Shown in pieces: positions 3,592-31,428 of a stretch of DNA of 32,011 nucleotides. The notes below the pieces were generated by a model. The model ran no database searches. It had not been told where the DNA came from and was given only the letters and a program-made list of their open reading frames with translations. Both the position numbers and the translations under genes were made by a program. Source of the DNA: a virus (taxonomy: Duplodnaviria; Heunggongvirae; Uroviricota; Caudoviricetes); the IMG/VR virus record IMGVR_UViG_2695420503_000024, positions 1-32,011 of that record, one strand, 5' to 3'. Each line of letters starts with the position of its first letter. The first letter of the stretch is position 1.

Positions 3592-6039
3592 TTAACCGTC
3601 ATGCATCATGCTGGCACGGGCGCGCGCACGTTTATCCCGCTCGTATTTTTCGAGCGCATCCTGTAACTGGCGGTCAAGCTGTGTCCCCGGCGCAGTACCA
3701 CCCGTCAGGCTGATGTGATATTCGTTTTTACTCTGGTCCACATAAGAGCGGCCAGCCGGTGCCGTAACCGGCTGATAAGCCTGATAACCTGCATAAGAGC
3801 TGGTCGCCGGAATATAACCACCGGTGCCATACGTGGCGGCATGAGTTCTGGCGGCGGTCTGGTCAAGTGTGTCTGACTCTTTGTTGATAACACCGAGTTT
3901 TTCCAGTACCCAGTCAATACCGCTGCGCAGTTTGTTGAACGCATTAAGCGGCAGCATCAGCGCGTCAGCCAGTGCCTGCCCGAACATGACGCCCGTGTCA
4001 CGGCAACGGTTCAGGGTGTCCTGGGTGGCTTTGACCGGGGCAATCAGGTTTTTAAACCACTGCCACGCGGCCTGTAACTTTTCACCCAGCCAGTTAAACA
4101 GCGGCTTAAGTGGCGTGAACAGTTCCCCCACCGGCGCAAATGCCGCTTTCAGCCCTTCAACCACACCGCCAAAGAATGCGCTGACAGGCTCCCAGTATTT
4201 ACGGATAAGCAACGCCCCGGCGACAATGGCAGCCACCACGGCCACAACCGGCCAGCTAATCGCACTGATGGCCGTCATAACGGCACTACCAACCGTCGTG
4301 AAGATTGCCCCCATTGCGCCTGCTGCCGCGATAATGGCATTGATGCCGGTGATAACCGGCCAGGCTACGAGGCCAATGGCACCGATGACACCAGTCAGCG
4401 CCAGTGCACCACCGACAATGATGCCGATGGTTGACGCCAGTGATTTGTTTTTCTGTATCCAGCCGTCGAGTTTTAACACATACTTTGTGGCCGTCTGCGT
4501 GAGCTTACGCAGTGCGCCTTCCTGCTGGTCAAACAGGTCAGTCCCCACCGCCTCATAAGCGGACTGAAACTCCTTAAAGTCACCGCCGAGGTTGTCCTGC
4601 ATGATATTTACCAGCTCAGCGGTCTTTCCGTCTGAGGCTTTAAACGCAGCGGTCAGTTTGTCCAGCTTTCCGGTTGACGCGGCAGTCATCAGCACAGCGG
4701 CGGCTGAGCTGGCCTCCTCCCCGAAAATGGTTTTCATGTATTCGGCCTGCTGGGCAGTACCGAGCCGGTTTTTCTCAAAACTGGCCTGCATTTCTTTCAG
4801 AATGGTAAATACTGGTCGGGTGTTTCCCTTGCTGTCTGAGGTTTTCACACCAAGCTCTTTCAGTGCATCCCACGCTTTTCCCGTCGGTGCCTGCAGGCGG
4901 CTTAACACGGCACGGCTTCCCGTCCCCGCCATTGAGCCTGTGATTTTTGCATCATGCAGCGCCCCGACCATTGCGGCGGTTTCTTCAATGCTGACACCGG
5001 CATTTTTTGCCACAGGTGCGGCATAGGTCAGCGCATCGCTCATGCCGTCAAAATCGGCGGCGGTTTTGTTCATCGTCATGGAGAGAACATCCCCGATATG
5101 AGCGACCTTATCGTTTGAAAGCTGAAAGGCGGATTTCATCCCCATCAGCAGGGCGGCGTTTTCTTCCATCGTGCGGCGGTTCGCCAGCGCCATATTCAGC
5201 GTGACCGGCGTTGCCGCCTGAATGGCATCAACATCCCCACCCGCTTTCGCGATGATTATCTGTGCACCGGCCGCATCATCCGCTGAGGCGGCGGTATTGT
5301 CGCCGAGCTGGCGCGCCTGTTTGCGTAGTGCTGCCATTTCGGCGGAATCTTTTGCCACACCGAGCACGGCCTGTAATTCTGAGTTTTTCTGCGCAAACTC
5401 ATAACCGGGCATCAGTAGCTTAACACCGGCCATCGTTCCCGCCGCCGCAATCCCCACACCGGCAGCGCCCACTGAGGCCATATTTCCGGCCAGTTCCTTT
5501 CCGGCCTGATAACGCTGTTTGACTGCGTTAAGTTTTGCCTGTTGCTCACTGACACGCGCCAGCGCATCACGCTGACGGTTAAGCTGTGCGGTGGTTTCAC
5601 TGATACGGTTTTTCAGTCCCTGCTCATCATGTGCAAGATTGCGGGTATTAATTCCCACAACGGCCAGTTCCCGCTGCTGGCGTTTAACGGAATCCGTCAG
5701 GCGGTTATATTTCGCCTGTAAGTCCTCCGCCGCTCGCTTTGCTGATTCCAGCACTTTCGCCTGAGCACGGGTCGGACGTTCGGTGTTTTTAAACTGTGTG
5801 GCAAGGGCTTCGGCTTCCAGCCGTGCCTTTTCAAGTGCATGACCAGTCACGGCGAGCTGTGCACTGGTCTTGCGAAATCCCTCAATACGGGACACCTGAC
5901 CGTTCAGCTCGCGCAGTGATTTTTGTGTTTCCCGGATATCCCCCGACAGCGATTTGCTCGCTGTGCGGATGGATTTAAACGGGCGGGATGCCTGGTCAAC
6001 AGCCCTGAGCAATACCTGTAATTTTACATTGTTACTCAT
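3592..6039 (-). CDS. T: Tail tape measure protein gpT (815 aa)
   Basis: Long Ala/Gly-rich coiled-coil protein with a central hydrophobic segment; same length as P2 gpT. Confidence 0.88.
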   Translation of the reverse strand: MSNNVKLQVLLRAVDQASRPFKSIRTASKSLSGDIRETQKSLRELNGQVSRIEGFRKTSAQLAVTGHALEKARLEAEALATQFKNTERPTRAQAKVLESAKRAAEDLQAKYNRLTDSVKRQQRELAVVGINTRNLAHDEQGLKNRISETTAQLNRQRDALARVSEQQAKLNAVKQRYQAGKELAGNMASVGAAGVGIAAAGTMAGVKLLMPGYEFAQKNSELQAVLGVAKDSAEMAALRKQARQLGDNTAASADDAAGAQIIIAKAGGDVDAIQAATPVTLNMALANRRTMEENAALLMGMKSAFQLSNDKVAHIGDVLSMTMNKTAADFDGMSDALTYAAPVAKNAGVSIEETAAMVGALHDAKITGSMAGTGSRAVLSRLQAPTGKAWDALKELGVKTSDSKGNTRPVFTILKEMQASFEKNRLGTAQQAEYMKTIFGEEASSAAAVLMTAASTGKLDKLTAAFKASDGKTAELVNIMQDNLGGDFKEFQSAYEAVGTDLFDQQEGALRKLTQTATKYVLKLDGWIQKNKSLASTIGIIVGGALALTGVIGAIGLVAWPVITGINAIIAAAGAMGAIFTTVGSAVMTAISAISWPVVAVVAAIVAGALLIRKYWEPVSAFFGGVVEGLKAAFAPVGELFTPLKPLFNWLGEKLQAAWQWFKNLIAPVKATQDTLNRCRDTGVMFGQALADALMLPLNAFNKLRSGIDWVLEKLGVINKESDTLDQTAARTHAATYGTGGYIPATSSYAGYQAYQPVTAPAGRSYVDQSKNEYHISLTGGTAPGTQLDRQLQDALEKYERDKRARARASMMHDG

Positions 6040-24175: not shown

Positions 24176-25498
24176 TTAGTTTGTTTTTTTAACTCCACTG
24201 TATTCCGCTATCATCCTCTCAACCGCTGGAAGCAACTCAGCAGGAACGCAAATAGACCTATCTGCCTTTCCAACATCTTTTGGCGTTTTGTAAGTACCAT
24301 TATAATTAAGGACGCATTCTTTAAGAATTTCAAAAAGAGAAACAATAGGGTCTACGCCATAGCTATCAATAAACTTTCGATAGCTATCATTATCAGATAA
24401 CGATGAAATATCTCCATGAACAAACTTACACCTAAGCTCATAGATTATTCCTATTTTTGAATCAATATCAATAATTTTCGCCGCATCTCTGCAAACACCG
24501 CCAATAATTGAATTTTTATTACCATTATTGGTTCCATACATAGCATCCAATGCTATAAATTGATTCAAAAACCTTTCACGTTTGTCATCCCTCCACCCGT
24601 GCGCTATAAAGGAAAGAGCAGACAACATCCTTTTATCAGGTGATGAAAGTATTTTTGTAAGTATCGCCAAGGCTGAATCCGTTATATTTAAATTATATAC
24701 AGACGGAATATTCACCCGAAACTCACTTTCATGATATTTCCCGACACCAAAAGACTCAACTAGATTATTAACAGCAACTCGATTAATCGCAAAAGGATTA
24801 TCAACCGCAAGACATAAAGCTCCAAACAAACTATCAAACATTTTCACCGCTTTATCCTCTGATGAAGCATATGCCACCACCAAGCAGGATTTTGACTGTC
24901 GAAAATATTTCCCAATTGGTTTATGCCGCATATATTCATCATCATAAAAATCAACAGGAACCTTGATGTCAGTTTTGTCTTTAATATCAGAAAGTAATTC
25001 CACCCCTAGCCCCGGGCCATATAAAAATAAATTTTCTCTAAGCTCAAGCTTCCCATCAAAGCCAGCACACCCAAGATTATAAATATACGGACAGGATTTT
25101 ATTCGTGAAAGCATATAATACTTAAACATCTCACTAAGATTTTTTCTATGAACTTGCGTTATAATATCATCAACACAAATCTTATCAGGATTAAGCGACA
25201 GAAAATCAGCATCAATGCGATTGAAGGCTTCAGAACAAAAACCTAACAATAATCTTTTCGCATTGTGAAGGTCACTTATACCTAATTGGGGGCCATATGC
25301 TTTTAATAACCTACTAGCACATTTTGCAATCTCCTCATCATCATATGCAAGCCAAAAAACAAAATCTTCTAATGCTTTACCGACTTGGATACAAGGCTGC
25401 TCCTTACCATGACTATAAAAAAAACTTTTGCATAATTTGTTTATCATGCCATTAGAGAACGCAACCTTCATAGATACTTCATCCCTTAACGCACTCAT
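24176..25498 (-). CDS. Hypothetical 440-aa protein, AT-rich cargo gene at the P2 old/tin hotspot; candidate anti-phage defense or abortive-infection protein
   Basis: Clean 1323-nt ORF with ATG and an AAGGA RBS; roughly 30-35% GC against ~60% in flanking phage genes; occupies the position of P2 orf91/tin/old; no Walker A motif, no TM segment; contains a weak HEPN-like R-x4-H (RCKFVH). Confidence 0.75.
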   Translation of the reverse strand: MSALRDEVSMKVAFSNGMINKLCKSFFYSHGKEQPCIQVGKALEDFVFWLAYDDEEIAKCASRLLKAYGPQLGISDLHNAKRLLLGFCSEAFNRIDADFLSLNPDKICVDDIITQVHRKNLSEMFKYYMLSRIKSCPYIYNLGCAGFDGKLELRENLFLYGPGLGVELLSDIKDKTDIKVPVDFYDDEYMRHKPIGKYFRQSKSCLVVAYASSEDKAVKMFDSLFGALCLAVDNPFAINRVAVNNLVESFGVGKYHESEFRVNIPSVYNLNITDSALAILTKILSSPDKRMLSALSFIAHGWRDDKRERFLNQFIALDAMYGTNNGNKNSIIGGVCRDAAKIIDIDSKIGIIYELRCKFVHGDISSLSDNDSYRKFIDSYGVDPIVSLFEILKECVLNYNGTYKTPKDVGKADRSICVPAELLPAVERMIAEYSGVKKTN

Positions 25499-25581: not shown

Positions 25582-27849
25582 TTAAGAAAACATCACCCAA
25601 TCGTCTTTTACAGCATAACTAAACCGCTCACCGTCATAAATTACTGTTGCCCCGCGCGCCAACGCCTCAAGCTCCCATCGCTGCGGCCTGATACCGTTCT
25701 GAGCAAGGTCAACGCGGATACGGGTAATTTGCATTCTTTCCGACCGGGTCAGTCTGGCCGATGGTGCAATTTCATGTGGTTTTAACGGGCTTCCGTTTCT
25801 TTGCTGACGATTTGGCGTTCTCAGGCCGTGTTTTAATGCGCCCCTGAGCGCCCTCACAACCTCCGGGTCATTCCATTCGATAACACCGTCATCAACCAGA
25901 TTAAGCACTGCTGCGGCGTGCTCAGAAGGTGTGGGAGCCGGTAACGAAGTATCACAACCGGTGACCTTTCCACAGTTATTGACAGGACTCCGAGGCGCGG
26001 CGATGCCGCTTTTTAAAGTCAAAGGCTCAACGACCGGAACTTTCGGCACAATGCGCCAGTCCGTCGTTCTGGTGATATGAATATGACGCGCGCCGAGATG
26101 CGGCGCGTAAATGCCGACCACTCTCTCGACCTCTTCCTCGTACTCGTTAACGTCATCCGACGGGCTACGGGCGACCCTGACAGTCTGACAATCGCGCGGG
26201 ACATTTGCCCCACCCTGCGCGCTGATATACAGCGCAAAATCGCCACTGTCTGCGGCAGCGCGTGCAGCCTCGACGCGTTCGTCAAACTCATCAGCAATGC
26301 TGACGCCGCGAGGCAATTTGCGTAGTTCACGGTAAGCCCCCATTGTCGGCAGGCCAACCGTTTTAAATTGCGGAATGCGCCACGTTGACGCCCATGCGGT
26401 AACAGCCGCGGCAGTGTCTTTCAGCGGCCTGCCGGTATCGTTATCGAGCTGACCATCCAGTGCATAGCCGTCGATGTTTTTTGAAATGTATTTCGCGATA
26501 TATCCCGCAGCACCGCCCCGGTTAAGGTGTTTTGCCTGAAAACGGTTTCGCGCAGCTCCTCTTTCGTCTCCATCCTCTTTGAGCGCGTAGCGACGCATGA
26601 TTTCGATAATCTGGTTACGCTGGCGTGGATTACAAAAAAGCATCATATGCCAGTGCGGCGTTCCGTCGTGGTGTGGCTCGACGACACGCAAACCGTAGAC
26701 CTGTAAATCATTATCCTTGAATGCCGTGCGCATCAGGCTCCAGATGCGGCAGAGATAACGCTGCGCATCCTTTGGATTAAATGCCTCATCGTTCCAGCCG
26801 TGATTAAGCTGAACGGTTTTACTTTCGCCTTTTCTGACCTGACGTGTCGGGTGATACTTTGACGGCGCGGTCAGCGTGATAAACATCCCCACATCACCCT
26901 CTGCGGCGGCGTAACGCTCAATACCGGCAATGGTGTTCATCAGCTCCATCCGGCGAATTTCAGGATTAGAAATACTGCCCATCACCTTACTGATAAGGTC
27001 GATACGCTCGCCGGTTTCCCTGTTTTCAAGGTCACACGATTTAAGAAATTCCAGATTTGCCTGGCGGCGCGCACGCACATCACGAATGGCGTGTTTACTG
27101 GCATAAGGAGAACGGTCTTTATTGACCTCCCCGACAGCTATCAGTAACGCTTCATGCCAGCGCATACGCTGGCCTTTAAGCTGATGAGTCCACCACTCAT
27201 CGTTAAACAGACGGGCAATGGCAGAATATGCCTGCCTCGTGGTCATCTGCCCTTTACGGTATTTTTTCCAGTAGAGCGGGGAAATATTGAAAGCACGTGC
27301 AGCGCCAGCAACATGACCATAGAGGTGAGCCTGCGCCTCATCCGTAAACAGCGATTCTTTTTCGCCATGCGCATCCACCCAGGCATCGCTGAGTTCCTCA
27401 TACATCATGAAAAGCTGCGATGAGATACGGGCAGCAAACTTTTTCAGCTCCTTGTCATTCATTCCCGGCAGGCGCGCATAGTGGTCACGCTCTGCCAGAA
27501 ATAGTAACGACGCGTCGGTGTTCATTTCATGGCGCTGATTCACACGCTCAATGCGCGGCCATAAACGACGCTGAAAAGTGGATGTGAGGAAATAAAACCC
27601 GTGCACCGGGCTTTTATTGCGCCGGATGTAGTCATAGCGTGAAGTAAACAGCGAGCGCAAAAAGTAAGGCAGGCGGTTAATCGTGGATAAAACACCTTGC
27701 ACCTGACGCATCTCGTCACGTGTAAGGGGTCTTTCGCGCCCGACGGCCTCGCGTGGCGAGTTCCATGCATAAGCACCGGTAAACGCCTTACCGGTGCCTG
27801 CAGCAAATGCTGACGGAGGGACAAAACGCCCGGAGGCTTTAACGGCCAT
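25582..27849 (-). CDS. A: Replication initiation protein gpA (rolling-circle endonuclease), ~755 aa
   Basis: Strong match to recalled P2 A; first ATG at 27849 (MAVKASGRF...). The ORF-track start at 27891 is TTG, so the true start carries some uncertainty. Confidence 0.85.
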   Translation of the reverse strand: MAVKASGRFVPPSAFAAGTGKAFTGAYAWNSPREAVGRERPLTRDEMRQVQGVLSTINRLPYFLRSLFTSRYDYIRRNKSPVHGFYFLTSTFQRRLWPRIERVNQRHEMNTDASLLFLAERDHYARLPGMNDKELKKFAARISSQLFMMYEELSDAWVDAHGEKESLFTDEAQAHLYGHVAGAARAFNISPLYWKKYRKGQMTTRQAYSAIARLFNDEWWTHQLKGQRMRWHEALLIAVGEVNKDRSPYASKHAIRDVRARRQANLEFLKSCDLENRETGERIDLISKVMGSISNPEIRRMELMNTIAGIERYAAAEGDVGMFITLTAPSKYHPTRQVRKGESKTVQLNHGWNDEAFNPKDAQRYLCRIWSLMRTAFKDNDLQVYGLRVVEPHHDGTPHWHMMLFCNPRQRNQIIEIMRRYALKEDGDERGAARNRFQAKHLNRGGAAGYIAKYISKNIDGYALDGQLDNDTGRPLKDTAAAVTAWASTWRIPQFKTVGLPTMGAYRELRKLPRGVSIADEFDERVEAARAAADSGDFALYISAQGGANVPRDCQTVRVARSPSDDVNEYEEEVERVVGIYAPHLGARHIHITRTTDWRIVPKVPVVEPLTLKSGIAAPRSPVNNCGKVTGCDTSLPAPTPSEHAAAVLNLVDDGVIEWNDPEVVRALRGALKHGLRTPNRQQRNGSPLKPHEIAPSARLTRSERMQITRIRVDLAQNGIRPQRWELEALARGATVIYDGERFSYAVKDDWVMFS

Positions 27850-28114
27850 ATGAGCCAAAAGCCTCTGAACAACGCCTGCTGAGTTGCTCAACCTGCGCGT
27901 TTAAATCAGCAAAAGACTTTGCGCTTCCGGTCAGAATATCGTGATGCATCAGGCCGGAAACGAGCTGGCTTAATTTCGGGTAATAACCAACCACTGCAAG
28001 CCATTCCTGACCGGCGTTTTTACCGCTTTCCGCTCTCTTTTTCTCGTGGAGAATAAACTGAAAGCTGTCACTGGTAACGACATAACGTTCGCCAATTTCA
28101 ATACGAATACTCAT
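27839..28114 (-). CDS. Hypothetical protein at the P2 orf83 position (91 aa)
   Basis: ATG verified; start overlaps the upstream stop (ATGA) and its own stop sits 5 nt before the A start. Confidence 0.65.
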   Translation of the reverse strand: MSIRIEIGERYVVTSDSFQFILHEKKRAESGKNAGQEWLAVVGYYPKLSQLVSGLMHHDILTGSAKSFADLNAQVEQLSRRCSEAFGSYGR

Positions 28115-28335
28115 GCCGTTCTCCGGTAATGTTTGTTTTTTGCTTCAAAGACTGACTGGCAGGAAACACAACGCGTAGCTGACGGATAAGCCGCACGACG
28201 GGCAGCAGGTATTGGCGCGTCACACTCTTCGCAAACCAGCGCAGAAGCACCGCAATGTTTTACCCTTGCCGCGTTAATCTGACGCTCCAGTAATTCAGCC
28301 TGTTGTTCCTGAATAAAATCTACGTTGTCCGGCAT
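28111..28335 (-). CDS. TraR/DksA-family C4 zinc-finger protein at the P2 orf82 position (74 aa)
   Basis: C-x2-C...C-x2-C (CEEC...CVSC) with a TraR-like layout. Confidence 0.75.
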   Translation of the reverse strand: MPDNVDFIQEQQAELLERQINAARVKHCGASALVCEECDAPIPAARRAAYPSATRCVSCQSVFEAKNKHYRRTA

Positions 28336-28637
28336 TACCAGCTCCTTTTGTCGTTAAGTTTTTTAAATTCATCAGCGCAATAGCTGGCAATTTCTGTCGT
28401 TAATTTCGTCAGTTCATCCACGGAGGAGATTTGCTTGTGAAATACAGCGCGTTTAACAAGTAAATTGACCACATCAGACAGGAGATTTAATTCGTTCTGA
28501 TAAATCGCGATAACAGACTCAGTTATTTCGCGTTTTTCTTTATCAAGACCAAGTTGAATAAGAGATAAATCGCCATTTTTCATAACGGTGATTTTTAAGG
28601 CGTTATTCAGTAATACAACTGAACGAGAACAGGACAT
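28335..28637 (-). CDS. Hypothetical AT-rich protein at the P2 orf81 position (~100 aa)
   Basis: ATG at 28637 with a strong GGGGAGGTG RBS; about 35% GC, well below the neighbours. Confidence 0.6.
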   Translation of the reverse strand: MSCSRSVVLLNNALKITVMKNGDLSLIQLGLDKEKREITESVIAIYQNELNLLSDVVNLLVKRAVFHKQISSVDELTKLTTEIASYCADEFKKLNDKRSW

Positions 28638-28861
28638 CAAAGCACCTCCCCGCGAGACAATCCGATATTGTGAAATTTTTCCGACTCCTGACTGAGCAGC
28701 TCGACTATCTCTACGCGGGATAACTCCGCCTTTGTGATGTGGCGAATTATGGCGTCAAGATGAGAAGAAAAGCGCGTCGCTGCGTCGGCCTGTGCTTCGG
28801 TTCTGGCCTGTTGCAGCAGTAATGCGTATTTACCGCACTGATTTTCAGAAACTGTATGCAT
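28637..28861 (-). CDS. Hypothetical protein at the P2 orf80 position (74 aa)
   Basis: ATG at 28861 with a GGAG RBS. The upstream TTG extension was rejected. Confidence 0.6.
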
Positions 28862-28924
28862 GACTTTCTCCAGGCAAAAAGAAGCCCCGCACAATTAAGT
28901 GCGTTAAAAACTCTGGTTAATTAC

Positions 28925-29425
28925 TTAATGCAGATATTGCTCTGGTTCTACCGACGTCAGAATTGTCGGTGCATACTCAAACAGGCTGAATAATTCACGT
29001 AATGCACGGAATAAGGCATCACGCCAGTAACATGATTCTTCATTAATTCGCCAGTATGGCTGGTTGAATTCTTTTTCAGTCAATCCGGCATGCATAAATA
29101 AAGTACGGCGCTGACTGACAGTTAAAAAGCTAATATATGCATACTCACTTGCACCGACCTGACGGCGTTTTGAGAATGCCCCACGCAGTTCATCAATTGC
29201 ACAAACCAGCCGTTCACGTTCGACATCGTTCATTTCTTCAAAACGCATCGTTGCGTGACGCTGTTTTAACTGCGCATGGAAGCAAACCGTTAGCCGTTCG
29301 CGTTCCATCATCTGATTATAATAATCGCATGTCTCCTGCCAGCGAGGGACGGCCAGATGCTTACCAATTATCCGGCGCATAGCTGCTGGCTGTTTTTCAA
29401 CGAGATTGAGCGTCATCACTGTCAT
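28925..29425 (-). CDS. B: Replication protein gpB (helicase loader), 166 aa
   Basis: Synteny and length match P2 gpB. Confidence 0.88.
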   Translation of the reverse strand: MTVMTLNLVEKQPAAMRRIIGKHLAVPRWQETCDYYNQMMERERLTVCFHAQLKQRHATMRFEEMNDVERERLVCAIDELRGAFSKRRQVGASEYAYISFLTVSQRRTLFMHAGLTEKEFNQPYWRINEESCYWRDALFRALRELFSLFEYAPTILTSVEPEQYLH

Positions 29426-29592
29426 TTCCAGACCCTCCGGCTTTTCAGAAAGGTCAGAGCCTTTTTTAACGGACTCTGTTTTTTGGTGCGGATAATGATT
29501 CCCTTACGCCCCTTACCGTGGGTGATGGTGAAGTCAATCGCCCTGGGGCTTTCGTTACGCAATAACTGAGCAATACAACGAGGCTCATTCAT
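29422..29592 (-). CDS. Small protein at the P2 orf78 position (~56 aa)
   Basis: ATG at 29592 with an AAGGAGA RBS, 11 nt after the cox stop. Confidence 0.55.
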   Translation of the reverse strand: MNEPRCIAQLLRNESPRAIDFTITHGKGRKGIIIRTKKQSPLKKALTFLKSRRVWK

Positions 29593-29602
29593 ACGGTTCT
29601 CC

Positions 29603-29878
29603 TTAACGTGGTTCACCGAGACCTAACCACATCAACCAGCCGTCACGAATCTCTTTAGGACGGCTTTCATAAGCCAGTTTTAGTCCGTTATTCCATGCCG
29701 GAAGGTATACCCAATATTCACCAGCACGCCCCGATACTGACTGAGGGTCAGTAATCTCAATAACTGGTAATTTCCCTTTCTCAATCATGCCCCTTACAGC
29801 TCTTGGAGTTTTACCAATGAGTTTTGCAAACTCCTGATAAGGCACGGCATCAGTCACGCTTACAAGCTGTCTATTCAT
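29603..29878 (-). CDS. cox: Cox: excisionase and repressor of Pc (91 aa)
   Basis: ...DAVPYQEFAKLIGK...GKLPVIE...SGRAGEYWVYLPAWNNGLKLAYESRPKEIRDGWLMWLGLGEPR closely matches recalled P2 Cox. Confidence 0.9.
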   Translation of the reverse strand: MNRQLVSVTDAVPYQEFAKLIGKTPRAVRGMIEKGKLPVIEITDPQSVSGRAGEYWVYLPAWNNGLKLAYESRPKEIRDGWLMWLGLGEPR

Positions 29879-29999
29879 CTGCTACGATTCTCCCTTAGTG
29901 CTTCTAATGGCTCCTAATGGCTAATTATTGCCTAAAAGGATAACTCCAGAAGCACAACATTTCACACTATCAGCAAGAAATTACGCAATCGGAGTAATT
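29879..29999. promoter_or_regulatory. Pe/Pc divergent early promoter and immunity operator region
   Basis: Intergenic gap between divergent cox and C; direct repeats CTAATGGC at 29903-29910 and 29913-29920, 10 bp centre to centre. Confidence 0.5.
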
Positions 30000-30299
30000 A
30001 TGTCAATAGACGTTTCGGAGAAGTTGAAGCTAATCCGTGAATCTGAAAGGTTAAACCGTAAAGAATTCAGTGAATTAACTGGTGTAGCCTACAGCTCACT
30101 TTCGAGCTATGAGAGCCGGTCAAAAAACGCTGGAGTTGAAGCCATAATGAAGGTCTTACAACATCCCAGATTTACTAAATATACTTTGTGGTTCATGACT
30201 GATCAGGTAGCTCCAGAAGCCGGGCAAATTGCGCCCGCTCTCGCACACTTTGGGCAAAACGAAACAACGTCGCCCCACTCCGGTCAAAAGACTGGTTAA
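30000..30299 (+). CDS. C: Immunity repressor C (99 aa)
   Basis: C-terminal ...FTKYTLWFMTDQVAPEAGQIAPALAHFGQNETTSPHSGQKTG matches recalled P2 C; ATG at 30000 with a GGAG RBS. Confidence 0.88.
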   Translation: MSIDVSEKLKLIRESERLNRKEFSELTGVAYSSLSSYESRSKNAGVEAIMKVLQHPRFTKYTLWFMTDQVAPEAGQIAPALAHFGQNETTSPHSGQKTG

Positions 30300-30414
30300 C
30301 AATTTATCGTGAATATATTCATCACAAGTGCCTACTATTGGTGGCTAAATTTCAGCCACCACGAAAAAAGCGATTAGTAGTAGCAAAAAAAAGTACCACT
30401 CGGAGGGTTTTCTG

Positions 30415-31428
30415 ATGGCAATCAAAAAACTCGATGATGGTCGATATGAAGTGGACATCCGCCCTACTGGACGTAACGGAAAACGCATCCGTAGGAAGTT
30501 TGATAAGAAAAGCGAAGCTGTCGCTTTCGAAAAATACACGTTGTACAACCACCACAATAAAGAATGGCTATCAAAACCAACAGACAAACGACGTCTGTCG
30601 GAACTGACACAGATCTGGTGGGATTTAAAGGGTAAACACGAAGAGCATGGGAAATCTAATCTTGGAAAAATTGAAATCTTCACAAAAATAACGAATGACC
30701 CATGCGCATTTCAAATCACGAAATCCCTTATCAGCCAGTACTGCGCCACCCGAAGAAGTCAGGGTATTAAACCTTCGAGTATCAATCGTGATTTAACATG
30801 TATTAGCGGCATGTTTACAGCCCTGATTGAAGCGGAGTTATTCTTTGGTGAGCACCCTATCAGAGGGACAAAGAGGCTTAAGGAGGAAAAACCAGAAACA
30901 GGCTATCTCACACAGGAAGAAATTGCCTTACTGCTTGCAGCACTTGACGGCGACAACAAAAAGATTGCGATTCTTTGCCTGAGTACAGGAGCACGTTGGG
31001 GAGAAGCAGCTCGTTTGAAAGCAGAAAATATCATCCATAACCGCGTCACGTTTGTTAAAACGAAAACAAACAAACCACGCACCGTCCCGATCTCAGAGGC
31101 TGTTGCCAAAATGATCGCGGATAACAAACGAGGTTTTTTATTCCCTGATGCTGATTACCCTCGCTTCAGACGAACAATGAAAGCAATAAAACCGGATTTG
31201 CCAACGGGGCAAGCCACACATGCACTAAGGCACAGCTTTGCCACTCATTTCATGATTAATGGAGGAAGTATTATCACGCTACAACGGATACTAGGTCACA
31301 CGCGGATTGAGCAAACTATGGTTTACGCTCATTTTGCGCCAGAGTACCTTCAGGACGCCATTTCTCTTAATCCGCTAAGAGGTGGTACTGAAGCCGAGAG
31401 TGTCCACACAGTGTCCACAGTAGAGTAA
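30415..31428 (+). CDS. int: Tyrosine integrase (337 aa)
   Basis: Closely matches recalled P2 Int; catalytic HALRHSFATH (H-x-x-R) and TMVYAHF (Tyr) motifs; lies next to attR. Confidence 0.92.
   Translation: MAIKKLDDGRYEVDIRPTGRNGKRIRRKFDKKSEAVAFEKYTLYNHHNKEWLSKPTDKRRLSELTQIWWDLKGKHEEHGKSNLGKIEIFTKITNDPCAFQITKSLISQYCATRRSQGIKPSSINRDLTCISGMFTALIEAELFFGEHPIRGTKRLKEEKPETGYLTQEEIALLLAALDGDNKKIAILCLSTGARWGEAARLKAENIIHNRVTFVKTKTNKPRTVPISEAVAKMIADNKRGFLFPDADYPRFRRTMKAIKPDLPTGQATHALRHSFATHFMINGGSIITLQRILGHTRIEQTMVYAHFAPEYLQDAISLNPLRGGTEAESVHTVSTVE

Follow-up and report, generated by a model that had tools for sequence, protein, structure and literature searches.

The closest described counterpart of the gene analysed here is orf81 of bacteriophage P2, whose product is entered as 'unknown' in a table of PMC3091744. 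The name 'orf81' was found in the literature in one table only, and searches on orf80-83 were otherwise empty; 'DUF5405' and 'PF17399' appeared in no paper, and 'DUF2732' gave incidental mentions only. A broader circle of relatives is formed by P2 Orf83, 186 CP83 and Sf6 gp24 (broad DUF5405, PHROG 154), which belong to the same Pfam family as Orf81 and align with it over the full length at the profile level. Members of this group are, like orf81, small early-operon genes in replication or recombination modules, and the 186 member is annotated as not essential. The group is widespread (178 phage records, including 186, Sf6, HK140, lambdoid, T4-like, N4-like and Bacillus phages), whereas the orf81 subfamily is narrow, with only 20 clusters at 50% identity among 1.84 billion representatives.

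Phage 186 also carries a set of small ORFs between the lysis-lysogeny switch and A, namely fil, dhr and CP80-CP84, and CP80-CP84 are annotated as not essential. CP80 corresponds to orf80, CP81 to orf82 and CP83 to orf83. Unlike the phage described here, 186 has neither an orf81 orthologue nor a gene B, and in its genome the TraR-like gene comes straight after the DUF2732 gene. The P2 morons and hotspot cargo genes old, tin and Z/fun resemble orf81 in being AT-rich relative to the backbone and non-essential. These hotspot genes map to the gpA-portal and tail region, are rapidly swapped, and work against other phages from within the lysogen (PMC9122126; bioRxiv 10.1101/2024.10.15.618418). In contrast, orf81 lies inside the early lytic operon, is translationally coupled, is nearly fixed among P2-type prophages of E. 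coli, and is homologous to a backbone gene.

The features of the locus, which is part of a window of 32,011 nucleotides (the whole stretch of DNA that was analysed), are collected in Table 1. The product of the ORF under study is 95% identical in amino acid sequence to the annotated P2 Orf81 (AF063097; AAD03303; 'DUF5405 family protein' in RefSeq) over residues 1-100; the two have the same length and differ by few substitutions, and their genes overlap the flanking orf80 and orf82 in the same way. The assignment to the P2 orf81 position in the original prediction was therefore literally correct. Identity and position between orf80 and orf82 place the protein in the P2 Orf81 orthologous group, PHROG 265, which matched with an E-value of 1.7e-54 (protein residues 1-100, profile positions 1-99 of 99). 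The DUF5405 profile (PF17399) scored 118 bits, against a curated gathering cutoff of 21.6, over positions 1-88 of 88. These matches show that the ORF, carried by a P2-type (Peduovirus) prophage, is orthologous to orf81 of bacteriophage P2, and hence a gene already catalogued. The gene order in the window agrees with the annotated P2 map, with an early replication operon composed of cox-orf78-B-orf80-orf81-orf82-orf83-A, and orf80 was directly upstream of orf81 in every orf81-bearing locus examined. The start of gene A was set by following the P2 annotation, together with the translation of the ORF; the ATG, at 27849, lies within the end of orf83 and gives an overlap of 11 nt, the same as in P2.

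Table 1. Features of the orf81 region, in window coordinates.
Feature	Coordinates	Strand	Details and evidence
gene B (166 aa, Phage_RepB)	28925..29425	minus	98% identical to P2 gpB
terminator-like hairpin between B and orf80	28888..28903	minus	consensus scan
orf80 (74 aa, DUF2732)	28637..28861	minus	PF10809 E 4.9e-10; 97% identical to P2 Orf80
orf81 Shine-Dalgarno GGGGAGGTG	28643..28651 (plus-strand numbering)	minus	5 nt before ATG; read from sequence
orf81 CDS (DUF5405)	28335..28637	minus	100 aa + stop, ATG start; ORF listing + translation
orf82 (74 aa, TraR/DksA-type zinc finger)	28111..28335	minus	PF01258 E 3e-11; TIGR02419 78 bits
orf83 (91 aa, second DUF5405 gene, orf81 paralogue)	27839..28114	minus	PF17399 49.3 bits
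gene A, replication initiator	25582..27849	minus	97% identical to P2 gpA

The ORF of about 100 aa with a ribosome-binding site that had been noticed in the sequence was confirmed, and it is a real protein-coding gene under purifying selection and not a chance ORF. Pooled over 71 related haplotypes, pN/pS was 0.09 for orf81, compared with 0.18 for orf82 and 0.21 for orf83, a value that speaks against diversifying selection on orf81. Many public records label the product as a replication initiation protein (PHROG/pharokka), and others as a minor tail protein. No support was found for either label: the Pfam assignment was DUF5405 only, and NCBIfam, PDB and Foldseek gave no initiator. NCBIfam produced zero matches to orf81, the PDB sequence search with the single Orf81 sequence gave chance matches only (E >= 0.024), and the PDB search with the orf81 family profile gave none.

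Homologues of orf81 were found in 75 sequenced P2-type phage records and in 1599 of 5426 complete E. coli genomes (~29%). In the E. coli genomes the gene occurs at 1832 places, compared with 1905 for gene B, and is thus close to fixation among the P2-type prophages of this species. Nucleotide identity to the present allele was 90-95% in 830 of the 1601 E. coli records, with a wider spread than that of B. Orthologues with 31-40% identity keep the RepB-DUF2732-DUF5405 order, under P2-type or 186-type immunity regions. None of the orthologues found occurred without gene B, and every genomic context examined for the subfamily was P2-type and included B.

The original prediction had regarded orf81 as a possible early-expressed accessory gene and had proposed a comparison of the B-A interval across P2-like phages, asking whether the ORF is conserved everywhere with similar composition. 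Such conservation was seen in the P2 genus, but it does not extend to P2-like phages as a whole. The gene is missing in phage 186 and in Enterobacter phage ENT4, in all 80 of the sampled 186-like viral contigs, which lack B, and in 39 of 78 B-encoding contigs of a more distant P2-like sample, in line with an accessory gene of the early operon that is not universal. Where both neighbours are present in orf81-negative contigs, orf80 abuts orf82 (20/20), and a clean indel of 299 nt, corresponding to orf81, separates the close relatives L187 and L188. These comparisons show that orf81 is a discrete cassette between orf80 (DUF2732) and orf82 (TraR-like), which is old and precisely absent in many P2-like phages. 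Being a precise cassette with natural deletion variants, it should be easy to study experimentally.

From this distribution, orf81 appears to be dispensable. Indirect evidence argues against a requirement for phage DNA replication: ENT4 and many prophage contigs lack the gene, and the paralogue in 186 is annotated as not essential, suggesting that orf81 is not strictly required. The frequent presence of B without orf81 likewise indicates that B function does not need it.

Both Orf81 and Orf83 score above the DUF5405 (PF17399) threshold. Alignment of the two family profiles with hhalign gave a probability of 95.5% and an E-value of 1.6e-8 over the full length; the same comparison from single sequences was weak (15%), and BLASTP of Orf81 against Orf83 detected no pairwise similarity. 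The two families are linked by gp10 of Yersinia phage vB_YenM_56.17, which is encoded at the orf81 position. At the level of profiles, these results show orf81 to be a diverged, old paralogue of orf83, located two genes downstream. The wider DUF5405 relatives occupy replication or recombination modules. Sf6 gp24 adjoins abc2/erf/ssb, the HK140 member adjoins RecT and a Gam-like gene, that of phage 186 sits between a DnaQ-like exonuclease gene and A, that of Pseudomonas phage UF_RH7 adjoins a DnaQ-like exonuclease gene, and a T4-like phage has its member flanked by the gp46-like gene and the clamp genes. Lambdoid early-left regions gather many unrelated accessory genes, so the adjacency to recombination genes there may be incidental.

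Structure prediction, also proposed at the outset, gave a confident AlphaFold model for Orf81 (pLDDT 86.3), with four strands followed by two helices, but no solved structure matched it. Foldseek against the PDB returned nothing at E <= 0.001, the best E-value being 0.14. The best PDB matches, to beta-propeller blades, Hsp70 substrate-binding domains and integrase arm-binding domains, had TM scores <= 0.45 and were judged non-specific. Among the predicted structures of BFVD, the best matches of the model included two DUF5405 proteins, one from Salmonella phage TR2 (E 4.3e-4, TM 0.63) and one from Morganella phage MP1 (TM 0.66/0.77), the latter a member of the broad PHROG 154 group, and in this collection the fold resembles only DUF5405 or uncharacterised phage proteins. 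An argument for DNA binding or DNA mimicry was dropped since net charge and pI are not conserved in the orf81 family (pI 5.3-9.7).

Our best guess, which we consider probable, is that this orthologue of P2 orf81 and paralogue of orf83 encodes a small accessory of the B-type replication module. It would be transcribed from the early promoter Pe once the repressor is lost, and its translation would be coupled to that of orf80. The protein, with its compact four-strand/two-helix fold and no enzyme-like features, would most likely act by binding another protein, the candidate partners being B/DnaB, A, Orf80 or a host nuclease. In this role, Orf81 would assist the B-dependent module for DNA replication or recombination without being essential to it; a function as an initiator or in lysogenic conversion is improbable. 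The functional part of this proposal rests on gene neighbourhood and on the B-linked distribution.

P2 B is a helicase-loader-type protein that loads the host DnaB helicase. A more specific version of the accessory role, which is speculative and rather unlikely as worded, is that Orf81 is a small early protein working only with the P2 B pathway, where it might tune the loading of DnaB by B or protect the replication that depends on B against a host nuclease or defence system. If so, this would be the first function for the DUF5405 fold, and the clean gain and loss between relatives would represent a host-specific adaptation of the replication module. The importance of the gene is modest: it belongs to a classic model phage, is carried by about 29% of complete E. 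coli genomes, and has a predicted fold without a solved counterpart. What can be regarded as settled is that its AT-richness is no evidence of horizontal acquisition, that by profile comparison it has a paralogue in orf83, and that in the sampled genomes it is always found alongside gene B.

The patchy, cassette-like presence of orf81 among close relatives also fits a host-specific takeover or counter-defence gene. As an alternative to the replication accessory, Orf81 could neutralise a host factor or an anti-phage system, and be kept where the target is common, as in E. coli, and lost elsewhere. This explanation is possible but not likely. It would agree with a small, apparently dispensable gene within an early operon, with the clean presence or absence among close relatives, and with a novel fold without enzymatic signature. 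The neighbouring orf82 is TraR/DksA-like, and members of the TraR/DksA family act on host RNA polymerase; the matching part of the 186 early operon contains the host-directed genes fil and dhr. However, the defence models of PADLOC-DB gave no match at E <= 0.1 to orf80, orf81, orf82 or orf83, and the low pN/pS gives no hint of diversifying selection. Where 1511 P2-like elements were surveyed (bioRxiv 10.64898/2026.02.27.708500), the types reported were Anti_RM and Anti_CRISPR only, found in 28 of the elements, and the near-universal orf81 was not flagged. Neither does a takeover or counter-defence function predict the strict association with B and the replication module across deep divergence. 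For the host-takeover or anti-defence role suggested in the original prediction, the analysis provided no evidence either way.

The junctions of orf81 indicate tight coupling to its neighbours. Its ribosome-binding site, GGGGAGGTG, is located within the 3' end of orf80, and the orf80 stop and the orf81 ATG share one base (TGATG); in the same way, the orf81 TAA stop shares one base with the orf82 start codon (TAATG), and the orf82 ribosome-binding site (AAGGAG, 28342-28347) lies inside the 3' end of orf81. Overlaps along the orf80-81-82-83-A chain are 1, 1, 4 and 11 nt. A consensus scan of 27700-30000, which weak internal signals could escape, found no promoter-like site within or beside orf81 on its strand, and no terminator-like site flanking it on that strand. 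The only same-strand terminator-like site in this interval is the hairpin listed in Table 1, which is upstream of orf80 and not flanking orf81; its counterpart in the B-orf80 interval of P2 is annotated as a 'putative rho-independent terminator'.

Since all the junctions from orf80 to A overlap, and the annotation of 186 states that translation of A appears to need translation to the end of the upstream ORF, the translation of orf81 could serve as a relay that passes ribosomes to the cis-acting A gene, with the protein being secondary. This is very unlikely: the amino acid sequence of Orf81 is under strong purifying selection, a confident predicted fold is kept across the family, and phages without orf81 simply join orf80 to orf82.

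The low GC content that had drawn attention to the ORF, estimated at about 35% and below that of its neighbours, was measured as 36.6%, compared with 50.4% for orf80, 50.7% for orf82, 46.7% for orf83, 45.7% for B, 53.5% for A and 52.4% for the whole window. It is 10-14 points under the flanking small genes and falls at the 3.4th percentile among all 303-nt windows. Orf81 is rich in Leu, Lys, Ser, Val, Asn and Ile, and poor in Gly, Ala, Pro and Arg. The GC fraction expected from its own amino acid sequence and the codon usage of the neighbours is 0.39-0.41, versus 0.37 observed, so amino acid composition accounts for most of the deficit, about three quarters of it. The AT-richness thus appears mainly to reflect the make-up of the protein, and not foreign DNA. 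Beyond the protein-based prediction, a residual deficit of 2-4 points at the codon-usage level was observed in the orf81 of the E. coli lineage. Low GC was found again in most orthologues, including most of the deep ones, with one clade of normal GC; its repetition across most orthologues suggests that it is not a mark of recent transfer. In other lineages the GC3 (GC at third codon positions) of orf81 is often no lower than that of the neighbours, and in several it is low.

The residual deficit in the E. coli lineage and the low GC3 of several lineages could reflect an AT-rich element acting at the DNA level, such as an H-NS or IHF site or an easily unwound tract overlapping the coding sequence. 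We consider this very unlikely indeed, since many orthologues have a GC3 no lower than their neighbours and one clade has normal GC. Furthermore, variation at synonymous sites is free throughout the gene and leaves no conserved block of the kind that a hidden cis element might produce, no RNA family or repeat signal was detected (Rfam at a permissive E-value gave zero matches in 27000-30500), and the P2 origin is annotated inside gene A.

The remaining explanation, put forward in the original prediction, is that of a moron, an extra gene of a phage genome in the sense of Hendrix and colleagues, here taken as a recently acquired foreign gene with autonomous expression and low GC as its sign. 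The GC content of 36.6%, against 46-54% in the neighbours, and the location between genes that lie side by side in related phages (186, L188 and all 20 orf81-negative contigs that carry both) would agree with it, but it is extremely unlikely: the consensus scan revealed neither a promoter nor a terminator belonging to orf81, one-base overlaps couple the gene on both sides, the GC deficit comes largely from amino acid composition and is common to most orthologues, nearly all P2-type prophages of E. coli carry the gene, and it lies outside the recognised P2 cargo hotspots. The associated claim that the gene is not ancestral to the phage was not supported either, given the homology to the phage's own orf83 family, the position and synteny kept down to 31-40% identity, and the restriction of the subfamily to P2-type contexts among those examined. 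As a real, conserved and old relative of orf83, orf81 is better regarded as an ordinary phage gene than as a recently imported moron.

The recognised cargo hotspots of P2 are the gpA-portal interval, Z/fun and the int side (PMC9122126; bioRxiv 10.1101/2024.10.15.618418). The first of these contains, in the window, a HEPN-annotated ORF (24176-25498) present in only 46 of the 5426 genomes, and it is this ORF, rather than orf81, that is the moron-like cargo of the window.

The window carries a P2-type prophage with its early operon on the minus strand and the repressor C and integrase genes on the plus strand. The original prediction described a small ORF between the replication genes B and A, and its description was accurate: the gene, on the minus strand, has 100 codons and an ATG start, with GGGGAGGTG 5 nt upstream. 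orf81 is embedded in the early operon. One base is common to the orf80 stop and the orf81 ATG (TGATG) and another to the orf81 TAA stop and the orf82 start (TAATG), and the ribosome-binding site of orf82 (AAGGAG) lies inside the final codons of orf81. Scans of the own-strand flanks of orf81 found neither a sigma-70-like promoter nor a terminator-like hairpin, and orf81 had no match in Rfam. The only same-strand terminator-like site in the scanned region was a hairpin with a T-run inside the operon, between B and orf80, corresponding to a putative terminator annotated there in P2; expression of orf80 to A may thus require read-through or antitermination.

Features of the window discussed in the text, with GC content and pooled pN/pS
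Feature	Position	Strand	Assignment	GC (%)	Pooled pN/pS	Location
cox	29603-29878	-				early operon
orf78	29422-29592	-				early operon
B	28925-29425	-	Phage_RepB	45.7	0.03	early operon
hairpin and T-run	28888-28903	-	terminator-like			early operon, between B and orf80
orf80	28637-28861	-	DUF2732	50.4	0.06	early operon
orf81	28335-28637	-	DUF5405; ORF in question	36.6	0.09	early operon
orf82	28111-28335	-	TraR/DksA-type zinc finger	50.7	0.18	early operon
orf83	27839-28114	-	DUF5405	46.7	0.21	early operon
A	25582-27849	-	replication initiator (GPA)	53.5		early operon
440-aa ORF	24176-25498	-	'HEPN domain-containing protein' (RefSeq)	roughly 35		between A and portal gene

At 95% identity, the protein aligns end to end with the one annotated as Orf81 in bacteriophage P2; 75 P2-type phage records from Escherichia, Yersinia and Salmonella carry it, with 90-99% identity in most. 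It matches Pfam DUF5405 (PF17399) at 118 bits (cutoff 21.6) and PHROG 265 (E 1.7e-54), showing that the window ORF is the known P2 gene orf81 and belongs to a known family. In a large protein collection it was represented by 295 clusters (90% identity level); all those listed carried PF17399, and the source-supplied names were solely 'DUF5405 family protein' or 'hypothetical protein'. The subfamily is narrow: when 1.84 billion representatives were scanned exhaustively with HMMER, just 20 clusters (50% identity level) emerged. The finding, though real, is ordinary, gene and family being already known.

Among phage records NC_070902 to NC_070908 and many RefSeq P2-type records, orf81 bears the label 'minor tail protein' in several and 'replication initiation protein', which is the PHROG label, in many others; neither label was supported by any test run. 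Fused Orf80-Orf81 and Orf81-Orf82 proteins also occur in databases (P0006, P0016 and P0110, 174-175 aa; P0088 and P0095, 167-175 aa), most likely caused by one-base indels at the one-base stop/start overlaps. P0095 stands for a cluster of 74 sequences and is recorded on 10 contigs, so one or more of the fusions may be genuine.

The gene two positions downstream, orf83, also matches DUF5405 (49.3 bits, above threshold). BLASTP found no similarity between Orf81 and Orf83, whereas an orf81-type profile (19 sequences) aligned over its full length with an orf83-type profile (12 sequences) at a probability of 95.5% (E 1.6e-8), so that the kinship is visible to profiles only. gp10 of Yersinia phage vB_YenM_56.17, located at the orf81 position, matches both families. 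By profile comparison, orf81 and orf83 are diverged paralogues, and the B-A interval thus holds two such genes flanking the TraR-like orf82. Orthologues at 31-40% identity keep the order RepB(B)-DUF2732-DUF5405(orf81)-[TraR]-[DUF5405 orf83]-[PAPS reductase]-GPA(A), in prophages with either a P2-type or a 186-type immunity region, and the order is unchanged in prophages of Scandinavium, Pseudescherichia and other Enterobacteriaceae with A proteins 77-80% identical. Judged from this gene order, orf81 is old in its position. A PAPS-reductase-like gene lies between orf83 and A in the P2-related phage 186 and in one further locus (L100), and two prophages have about 1 kb of additional sequence there (L009 4760-5785 and L011 4780-5808).

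By megablast, 1599 of the 5426 complete E. coli genomes carried orf81. Across the E. coli genomes B occupied 1905 places and orf81 1832; isolated phage records with B numbered 78, those with orf81 75 and those with A (at >= 90% identity) 77. Sampling via A proteins gave two sets of 80 viral contigs, whose upstream ORFs were typed with HMMs. The 186-like set contained no B and no orf81, with one weak match at the orf83 position. The other set was drawn from relatives of a distant prophage that carries orf81; B was found in 78 of its 80 contigs, and an orf81-type gene was present in 39 of these 78 and absent from the other 39; orf80 abuts orf82 in all 20 orf81-negative contigs having both. Apart from a 299-nt segment that is orf81 (L187 3253-3551), viral contigs L187 and L188 are collinear, with 83-92% identity at the nucleotide level. 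In 186 the TraR-like gene directly follows the DUF2732 gene, and CP80-CP84 are marked not essential in its record. In the isolated P2-like Enterobacter phage ENT4 (PV844615.1), with A about 74% and B about 84-91% identical, the genes run cox-orf78-B-orf80-orf83-A, with neither orf81 nor orf82. This pattern of presence and absence therefore marks orf81 as a discrete, dispensable cassette that is close to fixation in the P2 genus and of variable presence outside it. The comparison of this interval across P2-like phages, proposed with the original prediction, had a mixed outcome: near fixation in the P2 genus speaks against a moron, and absence from 186, ENT4 and half of the B-positive contigs speaks for an accessory gene. 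Among the genomes, phages and contigs examined, orf81 was seen only together with B. The ENT4 record is marked UNVERIFIED, and its B aligns as two overlapping pieces, possibly owing to a frameshift or sequencing error.

The table lists pooled pN/pS values for the segment from B to orf83, obtained by comparing 71 distinct haplotypes from viral contigs and genomes; orf81 is a functional gene. Its nucleotide divergence in E. coli genomes exceeds that of B: identity to the window allele was 90-95% in 830 of 1601 records for orf81 and 95-99% in 1537 of 1675 for B, which suggests at least two classes of allele, or else recombination at orf81. In an Escherichia albertii prophage (L006), the orf81 allele is a mosaic that resembles the Scandinavium-type gene in its N-terminal half and the E. 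coli type in its C-terminal half. An additional small ORF (3743-3995, 59-68 aa, without Pfam match) lies there between orf80 and orf81, and identity to the window is 98-100% in the flanking genes; the orf80/orf81 junction is thus open to insertions.

An AlphaFold2 model of Orf81 (19-sequence alignment; pLDDT 86.3, pTM 0.73) predicts four beta strands within residues 7-46 and, after them, two helices (49-66 and 73-99). No PDB structure matched it at E <= 0.001, and the best predicted viral structure matches were other DUF5405 members and uncharacterised small phage proteins (TM 0.55-0.77). Searches of PADLOC, NCBIfam and PDB sequences gave no match for Orf81, net charge is not conserved across its family, and Orf80-83 are entered only as 'unknown' in the literature consulted. 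Members of the wider DUF5405 family sit in replication or recombination modules in the contexts examined: Sf6 gp24 follows erf, ssb and abc2, the HK140 member follows RecT and a Gam-like gene, that of Pseudomonas phage UF_RH7 adjoins a DnaQ-like exonuclease, that of 186 lies between a DnaQ-like exonuclease and A, and that of a T4-like phage between a gp46-like gene and clamp genes; two further contexts were uninformative. From this context, our preferred reading is that Orf81 would be a small protein-binding accessory of the B-type replication or recombination module, a mechanism that, taken on its own, is possible rather than probable. The protein would be made early, from the promoter Pe, via coupled translation. 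The main rival, that Orf81 is a host-takeover or counter-defence protein, is doubtful; the patchy distribution fits it equally well, but the linkage to B and the absence of diversifying selection fit it less well.

The low GC content noted in the original prediction (about 35%) is borne out, at 36.6% (3.4th percentile of 303-nt windows) against 45.7-53.5% in the neighbours. The deficit is greatest at codon positions 1 and 2 (0.446 and 0.287), while position 3 (0.366) is inside the cox/C/orf82 range, and back-translation of the protein with neighbour codon usage predicted 0.39-0.41 against the observed 0.37. In nearly all lineages the core orf81 clade has a GC of 0.37-0.45 against 0.44-0.53 in neighbours, with third-position values often not below them, and a divergent clade has a normal GC (0.49). 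Other DUF5405 genes are also below their own phage, as in 186 CP83 (0.395 vs 0.48) and Sf6 gp24 (0.41 vs 0.47). Low GC thus appears to be mostly a property of the protein. This argues against a moron, an extra, foreign and autonomously expressed gene, as do the lack of a promoter or terminator of its own, the kinship with the backbone gene orf83 and the long-held position. The accessory part of the original interpretation stands, orf81 being dispensable and patchy, but the foreign origin is unlikely. Synonymous changes are spread over the entire gene, with no conserved synonymous block, and a DNA-level AT element or a pure translational relay is likewise unlikely.

The recognised cargo hotspots of P2-like phages are the gpA-portal site (home to old/tin in P2), the tail-region Z/fun site and the integrase side. 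No separate hotspot is named for the B-A interval, although in one survey 8% of P2 defence systems lay between integrase and gpA (PMC9122126). The 440-aa ORF of the window occupies the P2 old/tin (gpA-gpQ) defence hotspot. Neither Pfam nor PADLOC matched it, tblastn against 50,697 phage records found nothing, and of 5426 complete E. coli genomes only 46 contained it. This ORF, not orf81, is the moron-like cargo of the window, and is a candidate uncharacterised defence gene. Downstream of A in distant P2-like prophages the cargo differs (L095 5475-7234, L097 7905-8303 and L098 7793-8321), comprising AAA_15 with RloB, a SocA_Panacea-domain protein and a DNA methylase, consistent with the known gpA-portal hotspot.
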